A program made the translations under genes and the position numbers. From IMG/VR virus record IMGVR_UViG_2939147180_000004: a DNA stretch of 28,621 nt; one strand, given 5' to 3'. A model generated the notes under the pieces. That model did no database searches and was not told where the DNA came from. It worked only from the letters and a program-made list of their open reading frames with translations. Within the stretch, counting starts at the first letter, position 1. Each line of letters starts with the position of its first letter. Origin of the DNA: a virus (Duplodnaviria; Heunggongvirae; Uroviricota; Caudoviricetes). Of the stretch, positions 5,103 to 28,621 are shown piece by piece.

Positions 5103-5303
5103 ATGACTAAAGAAGAATTTGTCTCTTATATTTTTGATAAAACGGTTGAAATGTATGCCGCTACTTACGGGTCCTGTAATCCTCTGAATAAACCAGAGGG
5201 GAAAGATGATTTCGACAAAATTTACCGCTTCTTGGAGGACCGCTATATCAAAAGGTTAGAGGACGCAGGGATCAAATCCCCAGTGAAGTCACCATTGTCC
5301 TGA
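5103..5303 (+). CDS. Hypothetical small protein (66 aa), opposite in orientation to the early-left operon
   Basis: ATG at 5103 preceded by AAGGA 7 nt upstream (internal start of ORF 5016..5303). Charged, non-repetitive sequence MTKEEFVSYIFDKTVEMYAATYG... The 5' leader can pair TCCTTCTT with AAGAAGGA. Confidence 0.4.
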   Translation: MTKEEFVSYIFDKTVEMYAATYGSCNPLNKPEGKDDFDKIYRFLEDRYIKRLEDAGIKSPVKSPLS

Positions 5304-5637
5304 GAACTTGCAGGACGTCATGATCGTAACTTCCATCCAAACCGCGACGGCAAATTGCTTCTCGTATTACCGGAAGCAGTTCGCTGGAAATCTCGGTGCA
5401 TATTTCACCTGCTAATACGCCTGGCTCAAGTGAGAATATTGGTGAACTTACGGTCTTGGTCTCGACAGTTTCAGAGTCAGTGCCAACATTATAAAGCTCA
5501 ACGAAAGCGGTCTTGATTTTCCGGGCCAGATCTTTTGCTGGCTCGCTTGCAATATCTTTCCCGATTTCTCGCAGCACAGAATGCAATGTATGAGCTGCTG
5601 TTTTCTGTACATCAGACGGTAAATCTTTAAATTCCAT
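5272..5637 (-). CDS. Hypothetical protein (121 aa) at the head of the leftward operon
   Basis: ORF 5272..5649 minus; second ATG (5637) has GAGG 6 nt upstream. Its 3' end overlaps the 3' end of the plus-strand 66-aa gene by 32 bp. No HTH or peptidase S24 motifs seen. Confidence 0.45.
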   Translation of the reverse strand: MEFKDLPSDVQKTAAHTLHSVLREIGKDIASEPAKDLARKIKTAFVELYNVGTDSETVETKTVSSPIFSLEPGVLAGEICTEISSELLPVIREAICRRGLDGSYDHDVLQVLRTMVTSLGI

Positions 5638-5849
5638 CGTCAGCCTCATCAGTCAGTGTTTCTGGCTAACCAGCAACGCGCGCCAGATTCGGTTTTAAAC
5701 GTTTTGCTTTTGGTATATGTCATCGCGGTGAACGTACCGTCCTGGTTGGGGAACACGCCACATACAGGAGGCATCTGGCGGCGAGCTTCTGTATGATCCC
5801 AAGGTTTATGACGAATATCGTAAGACGAAGCGGGCGGGGCGGTTGAACA

Positions 5850-6371
5850 ATGAAAATCACTCCTGAACAGGCTCGTGAGGCTCTGGATGCCTGGATATGT
5901 CGACCAGGAATGACACAGGAGCAGGCGACGATATTAATCACTGAAGCATTCTGGGCTTTGAAAGAGCGCCCGAACATCGATGTTCAGCGTGTCACAGATG
6001 AAGGTGGCGCGGTTGATCAGCGAGCGCTTGGCGTTAATCGAGTGAAGATATTCGAACGCTGGAAGGCTATCGACACTAGGGATAAGCGTGAAAAGTTCAC
6101 GGCGCTAGTGCCTGCAATTATGGAGGCTATCCGGATTAATGATTTCAGGTTGTATCGTGAAATTAGTGACGGAAAAAGCATCACGTACATGATCGCCGGG
6201 TTAAACAAAGAATATGGCGATGTGGTGGAGTCCGGACTGCTTTTTGCTGATCCTGCCGTAGTGGATCGTGAAACTGACGAACTTATAGAAAAAGCAATTG
6301 CTTTCAAACTTGCGTATCGACAGCAATACCAACAAAAAGCTGGATGGAATTATGAGCCTTCTTTTTGCTGA
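5850..6371 (+). CDS. Hypothetical protein (173 aa), first gene of the rightward operon (cII position)
   Basis: ORF with ATG at 5850 directly upstream of, and overlapping by 20 nt, the replication initiator gene. No confident family assignment. Confidence 0.5.
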   Translation: MKITPEQAREALDAWICRPGMTQEQATILITEAFWALKERPNIDVQRVTDEGGAVDQRALGVNRVKIFERWKAIDTRDKREKFTALVPAIMEAIRINDFRLYREISDGKSITYMIAGLNKEYGDVVESGLLFADPAVVDRETDELIEKAIAFKLAYRQQYQQKAGWNYEPSFC

Positions 6372-7317
6372 ACGCCCACTGGTTATAAACACACAGCTTG
6401 CGATGAAGATTGGCTTAAATGAAGCCATTGTGTTGCAGCAGTTGCATTACTGGTTGAGAGATACCAATTCCGGCATGGAATGTGATGGTGTTCGCTGGAT
6501 TTACAACACAACGGAACAATGGCTGGAACAGTTCCCATTCTGGTCAGAGTCAACGTTAAAGCGCGCGTTTGCAAGTCTGAAAACGCTGGGGCTTTTGCGT
6601 TGTGAAAAGCTCAATAAATCAAAGCGCGATATGACCAATTTCTACACGATCAACTATGGGAACGAGCTTTTAGATGGTGGCAAATTGAACGAATCCATCG
6701 GTTCAAAATGCGCCGCTCCATCAGGTCAAAATGACACGATGGAAGAGGTCAAAATGAAACGCTCCATTGGTTCAAAACGACCCAATGTCATCGGGTCAAA
6801 ATGGCCTGATGATCTTACAGAGAATACAACAGAGATTACTACAGAGAATAAAAACACTTTTCGTCCGGAAGCTTCGCAACCGGACCCGCAGACCGCTGAA
6901 CAGGATTTTTTAATCCGGAACCCCGACGCGGTTGTGTTTAGTGCGAAAAAACGCCAGTGGGGTAGCAGGGAGGATTTGGCGTGTGCGCAGTGGATTTGGG
7001 GGCGGATCGTGAACCTTTACGAACAGGCTGCCAGCGACGATGGAGAGATCATGCGACCAAAAGAGCCTAACTGGACAGCCTGGGCCAATGACGTGCGCAC
7101 AATGCGGATGCTGGATGGCAGAAGCCACAGACAAATTTGCGAAATGTTTGGTCGGGTACAGCGAGATCCATTCTGGGTAAAAAACATCATGAGCCCGTCA
7201 AAACTCCGCGAAAAATGGGACGAACTGGTCATCCGCTTGGGACGTTCACCTGTACAGCGTTGTGTGAATCATATTTCTGAACCGGATACAGAAATTCCGC
7301 CTGGTTTCAGGGGATAA
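6352..7317 (+). CDS. Phage replication initiator (lambda O-like N-terminal winged-helix domain, DnaT-like C-terminus ...EPDTEIPPGFRG)
   Basis: N-terminus MSLLFAERPLVINTQLAMKIGLNEAIVLQQLHYWL is typical of replisome-organiser N domains; C-terminal PPGFRG tail resembles the primosomal DnaT C-terminus; iterons lie inside the gene. Start at the internal ATG 6352 is preferred over ORF start 6298. Confidence 0.8.
   Translation: MSLLFAERPLVINTQLAMKIGLNEAIVLQQLHYWLRDTNSGMECDGVRWIYNTTEQWLEQFPFWSESTLKRAFASLKTLGLLRCEKLNKSKRDMTNFYTINYGNELLDGGKLNESIGSKCAAPSGQNDTMEEVKMKRSIGSKRPNVIGSKWPDDLTENTTEITTENKNTFRPEASQPDPQTAEQDFLIRNPDAVVFSAKKRQWGSREDLACAQWIWGRIVNLYEQAASDDGEIMRPKEPNWTAWANDVRTMRMLDGRSHRQICEMFGRVQRDPFWVKNIMSPSKLREKWDELVIRLGRSPVQRCVNHISEPDTEIPPGFRG
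6697..6850. repeat. Replication-origin-like iteron array (5 x GGT(T)CAAAA(T/C)G at ~23-25 bp spacing) followed by an A+T-rich 12-bp tandem repeat ACAGAGA(A/T)TA x3
   Basis: Iterons start at 6700, 6724, 6747, 6769 and 6794; ACAGAGAATA / ACAGAGATTA / ACAGAGAATA at 6817, 6829 and 6841. Location inside the initiator gene mirrors lambda ori inside O. Confidence 0.6.
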
Positions 7318-7644
7318 GTGTTGATTTCAGGTCATGAGGTAATTTTAAGGAGGACTTGTGGCAAAAGTTTTTACACAGGAAGAGCGGGAAAAAATTAAAG
7401 AGCAGGTGGTCGAACTTGTGCGCCAGAGCGGTCGCGAGACATTACGACAGTTGGAAGCTAAAACAGGTGCGACAAGATATCTGATGAGCATTCTTGCCAG
7501 AGAGCTGGTTGCCAGTGGTTATGTATACAACTCCGGCTACGGGTTATTCCCGTCTGAACAGGCACGAAAGGACTGGCAAAATGCCCGCAAAAAACTCTCT
7601 AGGGCGAAGGTGAAGAAACCCGCTGTGGTTGATTGGATTTGCCC

Positions 7645-8550
7645 CTATATTTCCAGACATCTGTTATCACTTAACCCATTACAAGCCCGCTGCCGCAGAT
7701 ATTCCCGTGGCGAGCGATAACCCAGCGCACTATGCGGATGCCATTCGTTATAATGCTCGAACGCCTCTGCAAGGTTCTTTGCTGCCGTTAACCCGTCTGG
7801 TTTGGGCATGATACTGATGTAGTCACGCTTTATCGTTTTCACGAAGCTCTCTGCTATTCCGTTACTCTCCGGACTCCGCACCGCCGTGTTCTTCGGTTCA
7901 AGTCCCAACATCCGGGCGAACTGGCGTGTTTCATTAGCCCGGTAGCATGAACCATTATCCGTCAGCCACTCCACTGGAGACGACGGAAGATCGTTGCCGA
8001 AGCGGCGTTCCACCGCTCCCAGCATGACGTCCTGTACTGTTTCACTGTTGAAGCCGCCGGTAGTGACCGCCCAGTGCAGTGCCTCACGATCACAGCAGTC
8101 CAGCGCGAACGTGACACGCAGTCTCTCTCCGTTATCACAGCAGAACTCGAACCCGTCAGAGCACCATCGCTGATTGCTTTCTTTCACGGCCACTCTGCCT
8201 GTATGTGCCCGTTTCGATGGCGGTACAGCAGGTTTTCGCTCAAGCAACAGCGCATTCTGGCGCATGATCCGGTAAACACGTTTGGCATTGATCGCAGGCA
8301 TACCATCAAGTTCTGCCTGTCTGCGAAGCAGCGCCCATACCCGACGATAACCATACGTGGGCAGCTCTCCGATAACATGGTGTATACGGAGAAGCACATC
8401 CGTATCATCAGTGTGACGACTGCGGCGGCCATCCATCCAGTCATCGGTTCGTCTGAGAATGACGTGCAACTGCGCACGCGACACCCGGAGACAACGGCTG
8501 ACTAAGCTTACTCCCCATCCCCGGGCAATAAGGGCGCGTGCGCTATCCAC
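7645..8550 (-). CDS. insD: IS2 transposase OrfB (InsD, 301 aa, DDE integrase-like)
   Basis: ORF 7645..8550 overlapping insC in the -1 frame; recognised as the IS2 InsD sequence. Confidence 0.9.
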
Positions 8551-8873
8551 TTTTTTGCCCGTCCATATTCAACGGCTTCTTTGAGGAGTTCATTTTCCAT
8601 CGTTTTCTTGCCGAGCAGGCGCTGGAGTTCTTTAATCTGCTTCATGGCGGCAGCAAGTTCAGAGGCAGGAACAACCTGTTCTCCGGCGGCGACAGCAGTA
8701 AGACTTCCTTCCTGGTATTGCTTACGCCAGAGAAATAACTGGCTGGCTGCTACACCATGTTGCCGGGCAACGAGGGAGACCGTCATCCCCGGTTCAAAGC
8801 TCTGCTGAACAATTGCGATCTTTTCCTGTGTGGTACGCCGTCTGCGTTTCTCCGGCCCTAAGACATCAATCAT
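8508..8873 (-). CDS. insC: IS2 transposase OrfA (InsC, 121 aa)
   Basis: [40 protein letters not shown]... (HTH); internal ATG of ORF 8508..8918; ends near the A6G slippery site used for the InsCD frameshift. Confidence 0.9.
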
Positions 8874-9273
8874 CTGTTCTCCAATGACTAGTCTAAAAAC
8901 TAGTATTAAGACTATCACTTATTTAAGTGATATTGGTTGTCTGGAGATTCAGGGGGCCAGTCTATTGATCCGGACCTTATCTGGTCACTACCTGATGGAG
9001 AAATACGTCGCTACGACAGTCGTCTAAACATAATCTGTCGCGAGTGCCGGAAGAGCGAAGTTATGCAGCGCATACTGGCATTTTATCAGTGAAATTTTCG
9101 TTATTTATAGACGTAACTAGATTAAAGAGCATTAGTTCAGATGTGAATTGACATTTTCACGGCACAGGATTGAGCTAGCGTGGTTGTCTGCTTTGCGTCA
9201 AAAGCAGATATTACCAGATTTAGACATCTATTCCCGATAGCCCTGCTCTGATGCCACACTCTGTGCTATTTTC

Positions 9274-18441: not shown

Positions 18442-18804
18442 TCACCATAACTGCTAACCATTCTGACCATTTCACAAGTGACAGAGTCAATATCGTATTC
18501 TGTCACTGTCAGGCTAATACAGCAATGCAATTCAACTACAGCAATGCCTCGTATTTAGGTGAATTTACAATATCGTCCAGTTCGGATGCCGGCTGCATTT
18601 CTGAAGATAAGGCATTTCGGTTCTCGTATTTTCCCCTCATGCTCGTCAGTCCTGCGCGTAGTAAGAAACAGGACACTCACACTAATTTGTGTGGGCATGC
18701 TGTGATGTCCTTCTGAATTATCCCCATGCCATTATGTAAAGCTCTGTTTCAGATGCTCGTCACGGTTGTCAGGCTGTCGGGTCCTCCCAGTGGGGGTCCC
18801 TGCC

Positions 18805-19549: not shown

Positions 19550-21929
19550 GGTGTGGACCTATAACCGCAGTAATGTGGTGATGCCGGATGATGGCGCGCC
19601 GTTCCGCTACAGCTTCAGCGCCCTGAAGGACCGCCATAATGCCGTTGAGGTGAACTGGATTGACCCGAACAACGGCTGGGAGACGGCGACAGAGCTTGTT
19701 GAAGATACGCAGGCCATTGCCCGTTACGGTCGTAATGTCACGAAGATGGATGCCTTTGGCTGTACCAGCCGGGGGCAGGCACACCGCGCCGGGCTGTGGC
19801 TGATTAAAACGGAACTGCTGGAGACGCAGACCGTGGATTTCAGCGTGGGTGCTGAAGGGCTTCGCCATGTACCGGGCGATGTCATTGAAATCTGCGATGA
19901 TGACTATGCCGGTATCAGCACCGGCGGGCGCGTGCTGGCGGTAAACAGCCAGACCCGGACGCTGACGCTCGACCGTGAAATCACGCTGCCATCTTCCGGC
20001 ACCACGCTGATAAGCCTGGTTGACGGGCAGGGGAGTCCGGTCAGCGTGGAGGTTCAGTCCGTCACCGACGGCGTGAAGGTAAAAGTGAGCCGTGTTCCTG
20101 ACGGTGTTGCTGAATACAGCGTATGGGGGCTGAAGCTGCCGACGCTGCGCCAGCGACTGTTCCGCTGCGTGAGTATCCGTGAGAACGACGACGGCACGTA
20201 TGCCATCACCGCCGTGCAGCATGTGCCGGAAAAAGAGGCCATCGTGGATAACGGGGCGCACTTTGACGGCGACCAGAGCGGCACGGTGAATGGTGTCACG
20301 CCGCCAGCGGTGCAGCACCTGACTGCCGAAGTCACCGCAGACAGCGGGGAGTATCAGGTACTGGCCCGCTGGGACACGCCGAAGGTGGTGAAGGGGGTGA
20401 GCTTTATGCTTCGCCTGACCGTGGCAGCGGACGACGGCAGTGAGCGGCTGGTCAGCACGGCCCGGACGACAGAAACCACATACCGCTTCACGCAACTGGC
20501 GCTGGGACGGTACACGCTGACAGTCCGGGCGGTAAATGCGTGGGGACAGCAGGGCGATCCGGCGTCGGTATCGTTCCGGATTGCCGCACCGGTAGCACCG
20601 TCGCGGATTGAGCTGACGCCGGGCTATTTTCAGATAACTGCCACGCCGCATCTTGCGGTTTATGATCCGACGGTACAGTTTGAGTTCTGGTTCTCGGAAA
20701 CGCGGATTACCGATATCAGGCAGGTTGAAACCACAGCCCGCTACCTTGGTGCGGGGCTGTACTGGATAGCCGCCAGTATCAATATCAAACCGGGCCATGA
20801 TTATTACTTTTATATCCGCAGTGTGAACACCGTTGGCAAATCGGCATTCGTGGAGGCTGTTGGTCAGCCGAGTGATGACGCATCCGGCTATCTGGATTTT
20901 TTCAAAGGCGAGATAGGGAAAACCCATCTGGCTCAGGAGCTGTGGACGCAGATTGATAACGGTCAGCTTGCGCCTGACCTGGCTGAAATCAGGACGTCCA
21001 TTACGGATGTCAGCAATGAAATCACGCAGACCGTCAATAAGAAACTGGAAGACCAGAGTGCAGCGATCCAGCAGATACAGAAGGTTCAGGTTGATACAAA
21101 TAATAACCTGAACAGCATGTGGGCTGTGAAGCTGCAGCAGATGCAGGACGGACGCCTTTATATCGCGGGTATTGGTGCCGGTATTGAGAACACCCCTGAC
21201 GGCATGCAGAGTCAGGTGCTGCTGGCAGCAGACAGGATTGCGATGATTAATCCTGCGAATGGCAACACAAAGCCGATGTTTGTTGGGCAGGGCGATCAGA
21301 TATTCATGAACGAAGTGTTCCTGAAACGCCTGACGGCTCCCACCATTACCAGCGGCGGTAATCCTCCGGTATTTTCCCTGACACCGGACGGGCGGCTGAC
21401 GGCGAAAAATGCCGATATCAGCGGTAACGTGAATGCGAACTCCGGGACGCTCAACAACGTCACGATTAACGAGAACTGTCGGGTTCTGGGAAAACTGTCC
21501 GCCAACCAGATTGAAGGCGATCTCGTTAAAACAGTGGGCAAAGCTTTCCCCCGGGACTCCCGTGCACCGGAACGGTGGCCATCAGGGACCATCACCGTCA
21601 GGGTTTATGACGATCAGCCGTTTGACCGGCAGATTGTTATTCCGGCGGTGGCATTCAGCGGCGCTAAACATGAGCGGGAGAATAACGATATTTATTCGTC
21701 ATGCCGCCTGATAGTACGGAAAAACGGTGCTGAAATTTATAACCGTACCGCGCTGGATAATACGCTGATTTACAGTGGTGTTATTGATATGCCTGCCGGT
21801 CACGGTCACATGACACTGGAGTTTTCGGTGTCAGCATGGCTGGTAAATAACTGGTATCCCACAGCAAGTATCAGCGATTTGCTGGTTGTGGTGATGAAGA
21901 AAGCCACTGCAGGCATCACGATTAGCTGA
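19458..21929 (+). pseudogene. J: Host-specificity/central tail fibre protein J, 5'-truncated (about the C-terminal 790 codons)
   Basis: Near-colinear with my recollection of lambda gpJ from ...[40 protein letters not shown]... to the C-terminus. The 5' boundary is approximate and abuts the terminase remnants; no upstream tail genes. Confidence 0.85.
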
Positions 21930-22660: not shown

Positions 22661-25498
22661 ATGGCAGTACGGATTTCAGGTGTACTGAAAGATGGCGCAG
22701 GTAAGCCGATACAAAACTGCACCATTCAGCTAAAGGCCAGGCGCAACAGCACCACGGTGGTGGTGAACACAGTGGCCTCAGAAAACCCGGATGAAGCCGG
22801 GCGTTATAGCATGGACGTTGAGTACGGTCAGTACAGCGTTATTCTGTTGGTGGAAGGCTTCCCGCCATCGCATGCCGGGACCATCACCGTGTATGAAGAC
22901 TCACAACCGGGTACGCTGAATGATTTTCTCGGTGCCATGACGGAGGATGATGTCCGTCCGGAGGCACTGCGCCGCTTTGAACTGATGGTGGAAGAGGTGG
23001 CGCGTAACGCGTCCGCAGTGGCACAGAACACGGCAGCCGCGAAGAAGTCAGCCAGTGATGCCCGCACATCAGCCCGTGAGGCGGCAACCCATGCGACTGA
23101 TGCTGCGGACTCCGCACGCGCAGCCAGCACGTCAGCCGGACAGGCCGCGTCGTCGGCTCAGTCAGCGTCTTCCAGCGCAGGAACGGCATCAACAAAGGCT
23201 ACTGAAGCATCAAAAAGTGCTGCCGCTGCAGAGTCTTCAAAAAGCGCGGCAGCCACCAGTGCCGGTGCAGCGAAAACGTCAGAAACGAATGCCGCAGCAT
23301 CACAAAAATCTGCGGCCACTTCTGCATCCACCGCGACCACGAAAGCGTCAGAAGCTGCCACCTCAGCCCGGGATGCGTCGGCTTCAAAAGTGGCGGCAAA
23401 ATCATCAGAAACGAGCGCAGCCTCGAGCGCCGGCAGTGCAGCTTCCTCGGCAACGGCGGCAGGAAATTCCGCGAAGGCCGCAAAAACGTCTGAGATGAAT
23501 GCGGATAACAGCGCACAGGCGGCAGCAGACTCACAAACTGCATCGGCAAATTCCGCGACAGCAGCCAAAAAATCAGAAACCAACGCGAAAAATAGTGAGT
23601 CAGCAGCAAAGGTCAGCGAAACCAACGCTAAAGCGTCAGAGAACAAGGCGAAAGAATATCTCGACAAGGTCGGGGGACTCGTCAGCCCGATGACGCAATA
23701 CGATTGGCCCGTTGTTACTGGTAATGAGTCTTTTTACATAAAGATCGCGAAACTTTCCGATCCCGGAAGCAACAATTGCCATGTAACGCTAATGGTTACT
23801 AACGGCGGTGACTACGGCTCCCCTTACGGAAACATTGACTTTATCGAGATCTCGGCGCGCGGTCTGCCTTCTTCGCTTACTGCTGATAATGTATCTCGTT
23901 ACCTGAGTATACGCCGTTTAGGGCCAACCGGGCTAATCAATAGCATGCAAATGCGTTACGGCCTGGTTAAAGATGATGGCTTTATTGAGGTTTGGGCCTT
24001 CCAGCGTGCATTTATCAACGGCGCAAAGGTTGCGGTACTGGCGCAGACGGCACGCACGGAATTATACATTCCAGACGGATTTGTTAAGCAAACCGCCGCG
24101 CCTTCTGGATATGTTGAAAGCCCCGTTGTAAGGATTTACGACCAGTTAAACAAGCCGACTAAAGCAGATTTGGGTCTTTCTAATGCTATGCTTACAGGCG
24201 CTTTCGGTCTTGGCGGTAGCGGGATATCAACAAACGGCAAGATGAGCGATGTAGAGATCTTAAAAGCTCTGCGTGACAAAGGTGGTCATTTCTGGCGCGG
24301 TGATAAGCCGACCGGAAGCACGGCGACCATTTATAGCCACGGTTCTGGTATATTCTCGCGGTGCGGCGATACGTGGTCAGCGATCAATATCGACTACTCA
24401 ACCGCGAAGATTAAGATCTATGCCGGCAACGATGCCCGGCTTAACAACGGGACTTTTAGCGTCAATGAGCTATACGGCTCGGCAAACAAGCCGTCGAAAT
24501 CGGATGTTGGACTTGGCAACGTAACGAACGATGCGCAGGTAAAAAAAACCGGCGATACAATGACCTGTGACTTGACAATCAAAAAAGGTACACCGTCAGT
24601 CTTCCTGCGGGCAGACAGTGGAGTCACCGCTTTGCGGTTTTATACTGGCGATAACACAGAGCGCGGCATAATCTATGCTGGTCCTAACACTGATTCGCTT
24701 GGCGAAGTTCGCATCAGGGCAAAGACAGCAGGGGGGACATCAGGAGGGGATCTTGTTGTTCGTCACGACGGGAGGGTTGAAGTCCGTGATCTCACAGTAG
24801 CGTATAAAATTAAAAGCAGAACGATTGAGATTGCAAATACCGACACTGACTCATCGGCAACTACGCTCAGCATCTATGGAGTACAGCACACGCCGTTGGT
24901 TTTAACGCGTTCTGGTTCTTCTGAAAATGTGTCCATTGGGTTTAAGTTAGACAACATGAACCCAAAGTATCTTGGAATTGATACTAATGGGGATCTGGCT
25001 TTTGGTGAGAGTCCTGATCAGAAACAAAACAGCAAATTGATCACGCAAGCGAAACTCGACAAGGGATTAACGATTGGTGGTCAACTGGCTTTCAAAGGTA
25101 CGACAGCGTTTTCAGCCGTTGCTACGTTCAGTGCCGGGATAGCAGGAGCCATCGAGCCGGAAAACATTGACGGCCAGACGGTTAATCTTAACAACCTGAC
25201 CATCATCAAGTCAGATGCCGGGGCAGTTAAATACTATATTTGTCCATCCTCTGCAGGTGGTGCAAATATTACCAATAAGCCTGACGGCATAGCCGGTAAC
25301 TTTTTGCTCCGTGTAGAGTCGACTCGTAAGGTTAGGGATTCAGATTATGCGAACATGCAAACGCTGATTAACAGCGACACAAAACGTATATACGTTCGCT
25401 TTGTTGTTAATGGAAACTGGACAGCGTGGAGTCAGGTTGTTGTTTCCGGATGGAATCAGGATATAACTGTCAGGTCGTTAACTAGACTGGCCCCCTGA
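22661..25498 (+). pseudogene. stf: Side tail fibre protein (lambda Stf-like), N-terminal about 940 codons; reading frame ends inside an IS2 fragment
   Basis: N-terminus MAVRISGVLKDGAGKPIQNCTIQLKARRNSTTVVVNT... and the Ala/Ser/Thr-rich repeat region match my recollection of lambda Stf. The last 5 codons and the stop (25483..25498) are IS2-derived. Confidence 0.85.
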
Positions 25499-25613
25499 AT
25501 CTCCAGACAACCAATATCACTTAAATAAGTGATAGTCTTAATACTAGTTTTTAGACTAGTCATTGGAGAACAGATGATTGATGTCTTAGGGCCGGAGAAA
25601 CGCAGACGGCGTA
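25483..25613 (+). mobile_element. Solo 131-bp fragment of the IS2 left end (IRL through the insC start region)
   Basis: 131 bp identical to positions 1-131 of the full IS2 copy at 25656..25786; the match ends abruptly (GTA|AGTAAGA versus GTA|CCACACA). Confidence 0.85.
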
Positions 25614-25746
25614 AGTAAGATGCTGTCGCTAAAAAATTTCTTTAGCGGAGCTGAGTAGACTGGCCCCCTGAATCTCCAGACAACCAATATCACTTAAATA
25701 AGTGATAGTCTTAATACTAGTTTTTAGACTAGTCATTGGAGAACAG

Positions 25747-26112
25747 ATGATTGATGTCTTAGGGCCGGAGAAACGCAGACGGCGTACCACACAGGAAAAG
25801 ATCGCAATTGTTCAGCAGAGCTTTGAACCGGGGATGACGGTCTCCCTCGTTGCCCGGCAACATGGTGTAGCAGCCAGCCAGTTATTTCTCTGGCGTAAGC
25901 AATACCAGGAAGGAAGTCTTACTGCTGTCGCCGCCGGAGAACAGGTTGTTCCTGCCTCTGAACTTGCTGCCGCCATGAAGCAGATTAAAGAACTCCAGCG
26001 CCTGCTCGGCAAGAAAACGATGGAAAATGAACTCCTCAAAGAAGCCGTTGAATATGGACGGGCAAAAAAGTGGATAGCGCACGCGCCCTTATTGCCCGGG
26101 GATGGGGAGTAA
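25747..26112 (+). CDS. insC: IS2 transposase OrfA (InsC, 121 aa)
   Basis: Identical protein to copy 1; the A6G slippery heptamer AAAAAAG (26064..26070) lies in the insC/insD overlap. Confidence 0.9.
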
Positions 26113-26975
26113 GCTTAGTCAGCCGTTGTCTCCGGGTGTCGCGTGCGCAGTTGCACGTCATTCTCAGACGAACCGATGACTGGATGGATGGCCGCCGCAG
26201 TCGTCACACTGATGATACGGATGTGCTTCTCCGTATACACCATGTTATCGGAGAGCTGCCCACGTATGGTTATCGTCGGGTATGGGCGCTGCTTCGCAGA
26301 CAGGCAGAACTTGATGGTATGCCTGCGATCAATGCCAAACGTGTTTACCGGATCATGCGCCAGAATGCGCTGTTGCTTGAGCGAAAACCTGCTGTACCGC
26401 CATCGAAACGGGCACATACAGGCAGAGTGGCCGTGAAAGAAAGCAATCAGCGATGGTGCTCTGACGGGTTCGAGTTCTGCTGTGATAACGGAGAGAGACT
26501 GCGTGTCACGTTCGCGCTGGACTGCTGTGATCGTGAGGCACTGCACTGGGCGGTCACTACCGGCGGCTTCAACAGTGAAACAGTACAGGACGTCATGCTG
26601 GGAGCGGTGGAACGCCGCTTCGGCAACGATCTTCCGTCGTCTCCAGTGGAGTGGCTGACGGATAATGGTTCATGCTACCGGGCTAATGAAACACGCCAGT
26701 TCGCCCGGATGTTGGGACTTGAACCGAAGAACACGGCGGTGCGGAGTCCGGAGAGTAACGGAATAGCAGAGAGCTTCGTGAAAACGATAAAGCGTGACTA
26801 CATCAGTATCATGCCCAAACCAGACGGGTTAACGGCAGCAAAGAACCTTGCAGAGGCGTTCGAGCATTATAACGAATGGCATCCGCATAGTGCGCTGGGT
26901 TATCGCTCGCCACGGGAATATCTGCGGCAGCGGGCTTGTAATGGGTTAAGTGATAACAGATGTCTGGAAATATAG
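26070..26975 (+). CDS. insD: IS2 transposase OrfB (InsD, 301 aa)
   Basis: Identical protein to copy 1; -1 frame relative to insC. Confidence 0.9.
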
Positions 26976-26986
26976 GGGCAAATCCA

Positions 26987-27759
26987 CTGAGATACTGTTA
27001 AATGGTAATGACGGCACGGTTCAACTCAAAACAGGTGCTGTTAACGGGGCTACAGCGCAGGCGCTCACTATCAACAGGAATGAGGTTAACTCAACTGTTG
27101 ATTTAACCCTTACAAAACAATCAGGGACTGGCAATCGTTTTGTTTTACAGAACTCAGGTAATGCAGAACTACCGTTTTCTGTCAGGGTGTGGGGTTCCAG
27201 TACTCGACAAAACGTTTTTGAGGTTGGCACGTCTGCTGCGTATCTGTTTTATGCGCAAAAAACGTCAGCAGGCCAGTTGTTTGATGTAAATGGCGCTATT
27301 AATTGCACAACGCTGAATCAGTCATCAGACCGCGACCTTAAAGACGATATTCTCGTTATCAGCGACGCGACGAAAGCAATCCGTAAAATGAACGGATACA
27401 CCTACACGCTCAGGGAAAACGGGATGCCTTATGCTGGCGTTATTGCACAGGAAGTAATGGAGGCGATACCAGAAGCTGTGGGATCGTTTACTCATTATGG
27501 TGAAGAGTTGCAAGGTCCGACCGTTGACGGCAACGAGCTACGCGAAGAAACGCGCTATCTTAATGTTGACTACGCCGCCGTGACGGGCTTACTTGTTCAG
27601 TTCGCCCGTGAAACAGATGATCGCGTTACCGCGCTGGAAGAGGAAAACACAACGCTACGTCAAAATCTGGCAACAGCAGACACCCGGATCAGCACTCTGG
27701 AAAATCAGGTAAGCGAACTGGTTGCACTTGTCCGGCAGTTAACAGGAAGCGAACATTGA
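26987..27759 (+). pseudogene. Tail fibre C-terminal fragment with intramolecular-chaperone (peptidase S74-like) domain, separated from its 5' end by IS2
   Basis: With IS2 and one CTGAG copy removed, an ORF starts at ATG 25620 (MLSLKNFFSGAEILLNGNDG...) and continues to 27759. It contains ...SDRDLKDDI... and a C-terminal heptad-like region as in tail-spike chaperone domains. The ORF-track 26950 start lies inside IS2. Confidence 0.6.
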
Positions 27760-27933
27760 TATCCTTCAAGCTCTGAAGGAGGCTGTTCCCGGTACGTTCA
27801 GACTGTTGTTGAGCTGGAAATCGCAACGGAGGAAGAAACCTTGTTGCTGGAAGCCTGGAAAAAGTATCGGGTGTTGCTGAACCGTGTTGATACGTCAACT
27901 GCACAGGATATTGAATGGCCAGCACTGCCGTAG
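27760..27933 (+). pseudogene. Tail fibre assembly gene remnant (tfa C-terminus, no start codon)
   Basis: Frame immediately after, and in frame with, the tail-fibre stop encodes ...[45 protein letters not shown], which resembles the conserved Tfa C-terminal end; no ATG. Confidence 0.5.
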
Positions 27934-28030
27934 GGTAAAACATATAAATTCTATAATTAGATGTATCTTTCCATTTACGGCAAGGAAGGGGGCTTGGAAG
28001 ACGTAAAGCATCTCACACCGAGATTATTTT

Positions 28031-28621
28031 TTATATGTCAGGTGTCTGAAGTTTTGCTTTGGCTCTTAAAATGGTTTGCCGCGAGGTTTTGAATTCCCGG
28101 GCAATGGCACTTATACTTACACCTGACTTAATTCGTTCGAATACCACCTGTTTCTGTTCTTCATTTAACACAGGTGGTCGACCAAAACGTTTCCCTGCGC
28201 CGCGGGCTCTTACTATCCCGGAATGAGTGCGTTCAAGTAAAAGGTCTCGTTCAAATTCAGCGACTGCTGAAATTACGTGCATCATCATTTTTCCTGTTGG
28301 ACTGGTCAGGTCAATGCCCCCCAATGCTAAGCAATGCACTCTGATACCTGTTTCGGTCAGTTGTTCCACTGTTTTCCTGATATCCATTGCATTACAACCA
28401 AGGTGATCCAGTTTTGTCACAATCAATTGATCACCACATTTCAGGCGAGCAAGCAACCGGTTAAAACCAGGACGCTCACTGGTTGCTGCTGAGCCGCTAA
28501 TGTGTTCTTCGATTATTTGCTGAGGTTTGATTTTAAAACCTGCACTTTCGATTTCCCGGCGTTGATTTTCGGTGGTCTGATCCAGCGTTGATATCCGACA
28601 GTAAGCAAAAATTCGAGACAT
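28031..28621 (-). CDS. pin: Serine recombinase / DNA invertase (PinR/PinQ-like), 196 aa
   Basis: [15 protein letters not shown]... with catalytic Ser in the CRIST context and a C-terminal HTH (...[22 protein letters not shown]...); start codon at the window edge. Confidence 0.85.

Follow-up and report, generated by a model that had tools for sequence, protein, structure and literature searches.

IS2, a member of the IS3 family, is 1331 bp long, displays imperfect terminal repeats and carries two reading frames, orfA and orfB, that contain HTH_Tnp_1 and rve domains and are connected through a −1 frameshift at an A6G site. IS2 mini-insertions at gal, described in the 1970s, are IS remnants made by illegitimate recombination, and classical IS-adjacent deletions start exactly at the end of the element. 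The two terminal repeats of IS2 measure 42 bp (IRL) and 41 bp (IRR), and the element is cleaved only at the right, donor end, with the left end as the recipient (PMC3299598). IS3-family elements accompanied by IEE undergo transposase-dependent IS-adjacent deletions that are joined at microhomologies (PMC9943667). Breakage of cryptic prophage genes by IS elements and the formation of IS remnants through small deletions are already known and belong to the textbook. A literature search for this particular locus or event found nothing relevant, returning only general papers on the mechanisms of IS2 and IEE.

The stretch of DNA analysed here (the window, 28,621 nucleotides) is the right half of the defective Qin prophage of E. 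coli, inserted in ydfJ. The locus is identified as Qin by the genes that lie downstream in relatives, pinQ, ydfK, ynfT and ydfJ. It occupies the same chromosomal site as Qin of K-12 (stfQ, tfaQ and pinQ in ydfJ), and shares the right-end genes pinQ, ydfK and ynfT with it; the two are alike in being defective lambdoid prophages with a decaying tail fibre region. In contrast to what we take to be the arrangement of K-12 Qin, the window variant has retained Lom, J in its 3′ part and a long Stf whose C-terminus is an S74 chaperone. Its closest counterpart is the Stf of E. coli HS, an orthologue at the same locus, from which the window differs through the loss of 145 bp and the presence of two pieces of IS2-derived DNA, of 131 bp and 1336 bp. 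The smaller of these IS2 pieces resembles the mini-insertions at gal and the microhomology-joined deletions next to IS629 with IEE (PMC9943667), as it is a truncated IS that has kept one terminal repeat and ends at a short-repeat joint, of 7 bp here. The features of the window are the following.

7634..8964, (−) strand: further complete IS2 in the same prophage, inverted, 100% identical, target duplication TTGAT
22661..25482, (+) strand: stf 5′ part, codons 1–940 + 2 nt, collinear with HS stf to position 5250 of locus L004
25478..25482, (+) strand: TTAAC, surviving left target duplication of the first IS2 (in H2 and EC190486, TTAAC lies on both sides of a full IS2)
25483..25613, (+) strand: solo IS2 left end (stump), IS2 bases 1–131, with IRL, orfA leader and first 13 orfA codons
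25607..25613, (+) strand: CGGCGTA, 7-bp microhomology at the deletion joint, present as IS2 bases 125–131 and, in intact stf, immediately ahead of codon 990
25614..25655, (+) strand: stf 42 bp, codons 990–1003 (SKMLSLKNFFSGAE), in-frame match to HS at L004 5396–5437
25651..25655, (+) strand: CTGAG, left target duplication of the second IS2, read in sequence
25656..26986, (+) strand: complete IS2 (the second IS2 of stf), 1331 bp, orfA 25747–26112, A6G frameshift site 26064–26070, orfB 26070–26975
26987..26991, (+) strand: CTGAG, right target duplication of the second IS2, read in sequence
26992..27759, (+) strand: stf 3′ part, codons 1004–1258 + stop, 99.9% identical to HS
27760..27935, (+) strand: start-less tfa remnant, Pfam PF02413, profile positions 86–130 of 131
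28031..28621, (−) strand: pinQ serine invertase, Pfam Resolvase + HTH_7, annotated pinQ in relatives, marking the right part of Qin

The stf gene and its surviving pieces

The intact stf of E. coli HS comprises 3777 nt and 1258 codons (WP_000290867.1, 1258 aa). Alignment to this gene, a check that the first-pass annotation had proposed, reveals that the window is collinear with HS stf apart from the 145 bp that it lacks and the IS2 material that it has gained, with the surviving pieces matching HS codons 1–940, 990–1003 and 1004–1258. The missing segment starts at the third base of codon 941 and ends with codon 989. The HS frame is continuous, which disposes of the possibility, raised in the same annotation, that stf is naturally discontinuous at this position. 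The 5′ part of the gene encodes the N-terminal phage_tail_N domain (Pfam PF08400, E=1.4e-72), while the 3′ part encodes the Peptidase_S74 intramolecular chaperone domain (Pfam PF13884, E=1.2e-12) and a C-terminal coiled coil. In the window these two domains lie in separate fragments and only in HS do they share a single 1258-codon frame. The window stf is a pseudogene.

The reading frames around the stump behave as the first-pass annotation had described. The stf frame (22661–25498) stops inside the solo IS2 copy, at a TGA 16 bp into the fragment. Excision of the 131 bp by itself leaves the frame broken, with position 25482 falling on a second codon base and position 25614 on a first one; removal of the stump cannot restore the frame, as the lost 145 bp are not divisible by 3. 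The ORF that starts at ATG 25620 once the full IS2 and one CTGAG are taken out exists naturally, as a 267-codon ORF, in relatives without the second IS2. This ATG corresponds to the internal Met-992 of intact Stf, which rules out an independent gene made of the 42 bp and the downstream sequence. The stump itself now reads as a 14-codon ORF (25574–25618) that ends 1 nt before ATG 25620.

The complete IS2, the solo left end and its joint

The complete IS2 at 25656–26986 and its perfect CTGAG flanks hold base for base as first annotated, and the 131-bp solo left end reported at 25483–25613 is a 100% identical direct repeat of 25656–25786; an exact repeat of 131 nt together with an exact IS2 of 1331 bp cannot be due to chance. 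The complete element has the length (~1331 bp) and the ends of IS2, starting with 5′-TAGACTGG and finishing with CAAATCCA-3′, and its imperfect terminal repeats read TAGACTGGCCCCC... and ...GGGGCAAATCCA. The two frames encode HTH_Tnp_1 (orfA) and rve and rve_3 (orfB) domains, with AAAAAAG at 26064–26070 as the slippery site. The element is letter-identical to RefSeq copies annotated as 'IS3-like element IS2 family transposase, programmed frameshift' (e.g. L003, L006) and displays no differences from known IS2, the insertion site alone being particular to this strain. It appears intact, and this sequence, together with polymorphic insertions among near-identical strains, suggests that IS2 may be active in transposition. 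The second IS2 lies after stf codon 1003, 42 bp beyond the stump and in the stump's orientation. CTGAG is single-copy in all relatives checked (7/7), each of them without IS2 at this site, and is identified as the 5-bp target duplication. Three simple IS2 insertions have flanking repeats of this length, two in the window (CTGAG and TTGAT) and one in H2 and EC190486 (TTAAC).

The stump is the remnant of a full-length IS2 that occupied this position, as H2 and EC190486 share its left junction and display the TTAAC duplication. The parents of the joint at CGGCGTA are IS2 (...GACGGCGTA|CCACAC) and the stf of H2 (...GCCGGCGTA|AGTAAG). The deletion measures 1351 bp relative to H2, where IS2 is 1332 bp long, or 1350 bp relative to a standard 1331-bp IS2, and it removed IS2 bases 132–1331 (~1200 bp), one TTAAC and 145 bp of stf. 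It runs from IS2 base 131/132 to a stf position 150 bp beyond IRR. In contrast, classical adjacent deletions made by transposase have an endpoint exactly at the IS terminus and keep the IS whole. The present deletion is not of this type because neither endpoint is at an IS2 terminus, and the IS itself is truncated. Homologous recombination between two IS2 copies is ruled out by the right side of the joint, which is stf and not IS2. The two left ends in tandem are similarly not a transposition intermediate or a tandem dimer, since the intervening 42 bp read in frame as stf codons 990–1003, and each parental state is found in other genomes.

Earlier states in other genomes and the probable order of events

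The first-pass annotation had called for at least two events, a rearrangement or deletion that left the solo end and a later simple insertion of IS2. Both of these are supported by genomes in intermediate states, while the number rises to three, the first event being an IS2 insertion with duplication of TTAAC. Thus, stf was very probably destroyed by three successive unrelated events: an IS2 insertion, a deletion and a second IS2 insertion. In the first step IS2 would have entered stf after base 2822 and duplicated TTAAC, a state kept in strains. A 1351-bp deletion joined at CGGCGTA would then have left the 131-bp stump out of frame on stf codon 990; judging from the joint itself, this step probably proceeded by illegitimate, microhomology-mediated recombination, through either replication slippage or end joining. 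Insertion of the second IS2 after codon 1003, in the orientation of the stump and with CTGAG duplicated, would have produced the window state.

The state without IS2 in stf is displayed by HS, CH4784 and about 160 genomes, counted as those with an empty TTAAC site at a coverage of at least 80%, and IS-free genomes carry a single TTAAC at the insertion site. The full-IS2 state is kept in H2 and EC190486, in which IS2 begins at exactly 25483 and is bordered on both sides by TTAAC, followed by the 145 bp of stf and then by the 42 bp. Five isolates (w264, KFu024, KMi012, STS73-1-E and OZ501612), from China, Japan, imported salad and a human sample, carry the stump and the 42 bp and are devoid of the second IS2; w264 and KFu024 were read letter by letter across the joint and the empty CTGAG site, and the state of the other three was deduced from the match pattern. 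A table of junction motifs covering eight loci places every junction only in the genomes predicted to have it, and the joint motif is confined to the window and the stump-only genomes. The final state of the window, stump plus second IS2, was seen in no other genome of the collection searched, from which records of the window's own genome or of close kin may be missing. SNPs 24461 and 28404 are common only to the window and the stump-only genomes, which supports the order of events. Similarly, the upstream 25 kb have 100.0% identity to the stump-only genomes and 99.7–99.8% to the full-IS2 genomes. The sampled stump-only genomes are sisters of the window and not its ancestors, because they carry a derived SNP at 27660 that is absent from the window.

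The tandem left ends would be misleading if they were an artefact of assembly and the strain really contained only the stump or only one IS2. Junctions 25655/25656 and 26986/26987 are unique to the window and known from its assembly alone, and IS elements are classic sites of misassembly, with three identical IS2 left ends present within the window. However, the stump and its joint occur in five complete genomes that come, by their source descriptions, from at least four separate projects, and the second IS2 lies between perfect 5-bp copies of a sequence that the relatives all have only once, a mark of true transposition that assemblers do not create. Both junctions are further anchored by the 42 unique bp between the left ends, and an artefact is very improbable. 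The placing of the stump-only state before the state with stump and IS2 follows parsimony, as precise excision gives an identical stump-only sequence. A window-like ancestor from which the stump-only genomes arose by precise loss of the second IS2, reversing the last step, would restore a single CTGAG indistinguishable at the site, and the derived SNP at 27660 speaks for it. Precise excision is, however, much rarer than insertion, and the stump-only state is found in five isolates against a single occurrence of the window's state, so that this reversal is barely credible.

The deletion could also have been started by the IS2 transposase, a failed figure-of-eight or minicircle giving a break at IRR that was resected and closed at the microhomology, possibly by an end-joining polymerase of the IEE type. 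This is consistent with the asymmetry of IS2, as the donor end IRR is lost and the recipient end IRL is kept (PMC3299598), and with the IEE deletions described for IS3-family elements (PMC9943667). In E. coli genomes the left end of IS2 is found at 21,760 places and the right end at 18,786, raw counts that include shared ancestry and related IS elements and are taken as a lead only. Against such a start, neither endpoint is at an IS2 terminus, one event cannot show a bias, and plain replication slippage between the 7-bp repeats accounts for the joint equally well. We consider a transposase-started deletion possible, if rather unlikely, and judge in the same way the resection it would entail, of ~1200 bp within the IS and 150 bp outside it. 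That the stump is a footprint of one-sided IS2 chemistry, in which a break left at IRR by failed transposition is sealed by microhomology end joining, with loss of the right part of the element and some of the flanking DNA, and solo left ends remain, is unlikely; if this were true and general, the donor end would be the preferred side of erosion in IS2 and comparable copy-out elements, and the excess of left ends in E. coli genomes would be a population-level trace of this erosion. For the last of the three events, it is decidedly improbable that the solo left end close by attracted the second IS2, through end-targeted insertion as reported for other circle-forming IS families, or that this copy arrived by local hopping from the same prophage. 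The new copy lies 42 bp from the stump in matching orientation, an identical IS2 is found 16.7 kb away in the same prophage, and a paralogous stf in another prophage (L003) carries the same IS2 ~185 bp further 3′ in the same orientation. However, this is a single case, and end-targeted insertion puts the new copy against the resident end, whereas here the two are 42 bp apart. No stump lies near the L003 insertion, which points to regional preference or chance, and the L003 case was found by a query holding both stf and IS2, which is biased toward such cases.

The decaying Qin prophage

The head and tail genes of this prophage had already been lost and J is truncated even in strain HS, so the IS2 events in stf are most likely selectively neutral decay. 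The locus is a well-documented case of the ordinary decay of a prophage that was non-functional beforehand. It offers a clean worked example in which sequenced strains still display all four states (intact, IS2 inserted, truncated and re-inserted) and the joint can be placed on a 7-bp repeat. It also supplies markers for typing strains of this E. coli lineage and one data point on whether IS2 decays preferentially from the donor (right) end. The IS2 at 7634..8964, which is common to full-IS2 and stump-only relatives, is a possible source copy. The tfa remnant that follows stf is annotated as a pseudogene in all relatives, HS included, and belongs to the context of the locus, outside the IS2 events.

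IS2 ends and the remaining parts of stf

The 131-nt segment at 25483-25613 is repeated directly and with 100% identity at 25656-25786 (direct reading and repeat search), where it opens a complete IS2 of 1331 bp (25656-26986) bounded by imperfect terminal inverted repeats, as found by repeat search. This complete element contains two overlapping ORFs of 121 and 301 codons, with Pfam matches to HTH_Tnp_1 and rve/rve_3, displays a slippery site AAAAAAG at 26064-26070 and is letter-identical to RefSeq copies labelled 'IS3-like element IS2 family transposase, programmed frameshift'. All the coordinates of the first-pass annotation were correct. The long ORF 22661-25498 carries the Prophage tail fibre N-terminal domain (Pfam, E=1.4e-72) and ends at a TGA located 16 bp into the solo left end (the stump). 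The frame 3' of the complete element, the second IS2 of this gene, extends from 26992 to 27759 and includes the Peptidase_S74 chaperone domain (Pfam).

At its Qin locus, E. coli HS has an uninterrupted side tail fibre gene, stf, which is 1258 codons long (3777 nt; WP_000290867.1), and the frame is thus not naturally discontinuous. Alignment of the two sequences revealed that HS stf is collinear with the window in three pieces and that 145 bp are absent from the latter.

Segments of stf and target duplication of the second IS2 in the window
22661-25482: stf codons 1-940 plus two bases (alignment to HS stf)
25614-25655: stf codons 990-1003, SKMLSLKNFFSGAE (alignment to HS stf)
25651-25655: CTGAG, left copy (direct reading)
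26987-26991: CTGAG, right copy (direct reading)
26992-27759: stf codons 1004-1258 plus stop (alignment to HS stf)

Since the missing 145 bp are not a multiple of three, excising the 131-bp fragment cannot restore the stf frame, in agreement with what had been proposed. An ORF starting at ATG 25620 had also been described as reconstituted by removal of the second IS2 and one CTGAG. This frame is real and occurs naturally, with 267 codons, in strains lacking that element, but it is simply the stf frame, as the alignment of 25614-25655 with HS codons 990-1003 identifies the ATG as the internal Met-992 of Stf. The orfA start within the stump opens a 14-codon ORF (25574-25618; 13 codons of orfA, AAG and the stop TAA) that terminates one base ahead of this ATG (region 25574-25622). 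In stump-only strains an IS2 leader is therefore placed directly ahead of the predicted 267-codon C-terminal fragment of Stf.

Preserved states and the order of events

Genomes were classified through a search with 25250-25900, alignments and a junction-motif table covering eight loci. An empty-site probe, made by joining the two IS2 flanks of strain H2, matched 160 genomes at ≥80% coverage, many at 100% identity. The intact class (HS, CH4784 and others) displays a single TTAAC, a single CTGAG and no IS2. Strains H2 and EC190486 hold a complete IS2 exactly at the left junction of the stump, with TTAAC on both sides, followed by the 145 bp of stf, the 42 bp and an empty CTGAG site. The H2 copy (5234-6565 of the H2 locus, L001) is 1332 bp long: it has gained a base near IS2 position 1226, and its orfB is annotated as shortened. 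This extra base is a true frameshift or else an error of the assembly; in EC190486 the element at this site has the usual length of 1331 bp. Five genomes are stump-only, with the 131-bp stump, the same joint, the 42 bp and an empty CTGAG; for w264 and KFu024 the joint and the empty site were checked base by base in the sequence, and the state of KMi012, STS73-1-E and OZ501612 was deduced from the match pattern of the 25250-25900 search. The window corresponds to the stump-only state plus the second IS2, and its two unique junctions occur in no other genome listed by that search or by the eight-locus motif table.

Over the 25 kb upstream, the window shows 100.0% identity to the stump-only genomes, against 99.7-99.8% for the two full-IS2 genomes. 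In the 5 kb surrounding stf, the derived bases at 24461 and 28404 occur only in the window and in stump-only genomes; a further derived base, at 27660, is peculiar to the sampled stump-only genomes, and another, at 22807, to the window. Identity and derived-base pattern thus indicate that the common ancestor of the window and the stump-only strains already had the deletion; the second IS2 came later and is private to the lineage of the window. The opposite sequence of events, in which stump-only genomes arose by precise excision of the second IS2, is unparsimonious. In the preferred order, IS2 inserted into stf, duplicating TTAAC; a 1351-bp deletion then left the 131-bp stump joined to stf at CGGCGTA; finally, the second IS2 entered the CTGAG site 42 bp past the stump. 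The proposal of at least two events, an IS2-associated rearrangement or deletion followed by an IS2 insertion, is supported by the preserved states and is here sharpened to three, the deletion now being located with single-base precision. The CTGAG site has one copy in every relative and is perfectly duplicated here; this, together with the 42 unique bases separating the two left ends, argues strongly that the window-specific junctions are real as assembled. The loss of stf is an ordinary case of a cryptic prophage gene decaying through IS activity, a phenomenon already known.

The deletion joint and the IS2 ends

The lost segment comprises 1351 bp (L001 5365-6715, strain H2 coordinates), namely 1201 bp of H2's 1332-bp IS2, the right TTAAC and the 145 bp of stf. 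At the joint the parental IS2 reads ...GACGGCGTA|CCACAC, the parental stf ...GCCGGCGTA|AGTAAG and the product ...GACGGCGTA|AGTAAG, which places the joint inside the 7-bp identity CGGCGTA (8/9 bases match). By our own estimate, ~3 in 10,000 random joints would match this well. As both endpoints lie away from the IS2 termini, this is not a classical transposase-made adjacent deletion; the joint suggests microhomology-mediated illegitimate recombination, by slippage or end joining. For IS3-family elements, deletions next to the IS with microhomology joints have been described where IEE is present (PMC9943667).

In IS2 only the right end, IRR, is cleaved as donor, and the left end, IRL, is exclusively a recipient (PMC3299598). 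The stump deletion removed the donor end and retained IRL. In a set of 5,426 E. coli genomes, IS2 bases 1-131 occur at 21,760 places in 4,756 genomes and bases 1201-1331, the last 131 bp, at 18,786 places in 4,325 genomes, both counts being uncorrected for shared ancestry and related IS elements. These counts give a net excess of left-end-only remnants. Erosion of IS2 from the donor end is compatible with the deletion and the end counts, and is kept as a low-probability side hypothesis because the counts carry these uncorrected contributions.

Further IS2 copies and the Qin locus

A third IS2 sequence, complete and 100% identical to 25656-26986, lies inverted relative to it on the minus strand (7634-8964), with a TTGAT duplication. 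It is shared by full-IS2 and stump-only genomes, and is thus as old as the stf events or older; it is apparently absent from CH4784 (95% coverage). This copy is a candidate donor. In another prophage, adjoining ompW/yciE in strain 2017-03-3CC (locus L003), a paralogous stf with 76-82% identity around the site is interrupted by a 100% identical IS2 (L003 5603-6933), which has a CTACC duplication, lies ~185 bp further 3' than the CTGAG site and has the orientation of the second IS2. Three independent IS2 hits within ~375 bp of the stf family hint at a regional preference; an IS2-prone region is not claimed, as the search was biased towards such cases.

In near-identical stretches of complete E. 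coli genomes, pinQ, ydfK, ynfT and the 3' part of ydfJ lie immediately downstream, identifying the window as the right part of a Qin prophage. This prophage is defective. The J gene is annotated without its N-terminus in all relatives, E. coli HS included, and stf is followed in all of them, again including HS, by only a start-less fragment of the tail fibre assembly gene, tfa (annotation; Pfam in the window). In 27760-28621 the tfa remnant (profile positions 86-130/131) abuts the stf stop and adjoins an apparently intact pinQ invertase. Its presence in HS makes this arrangement older than the IS2 events, and it resembles a tail-fibre inversion switch that has decayed.
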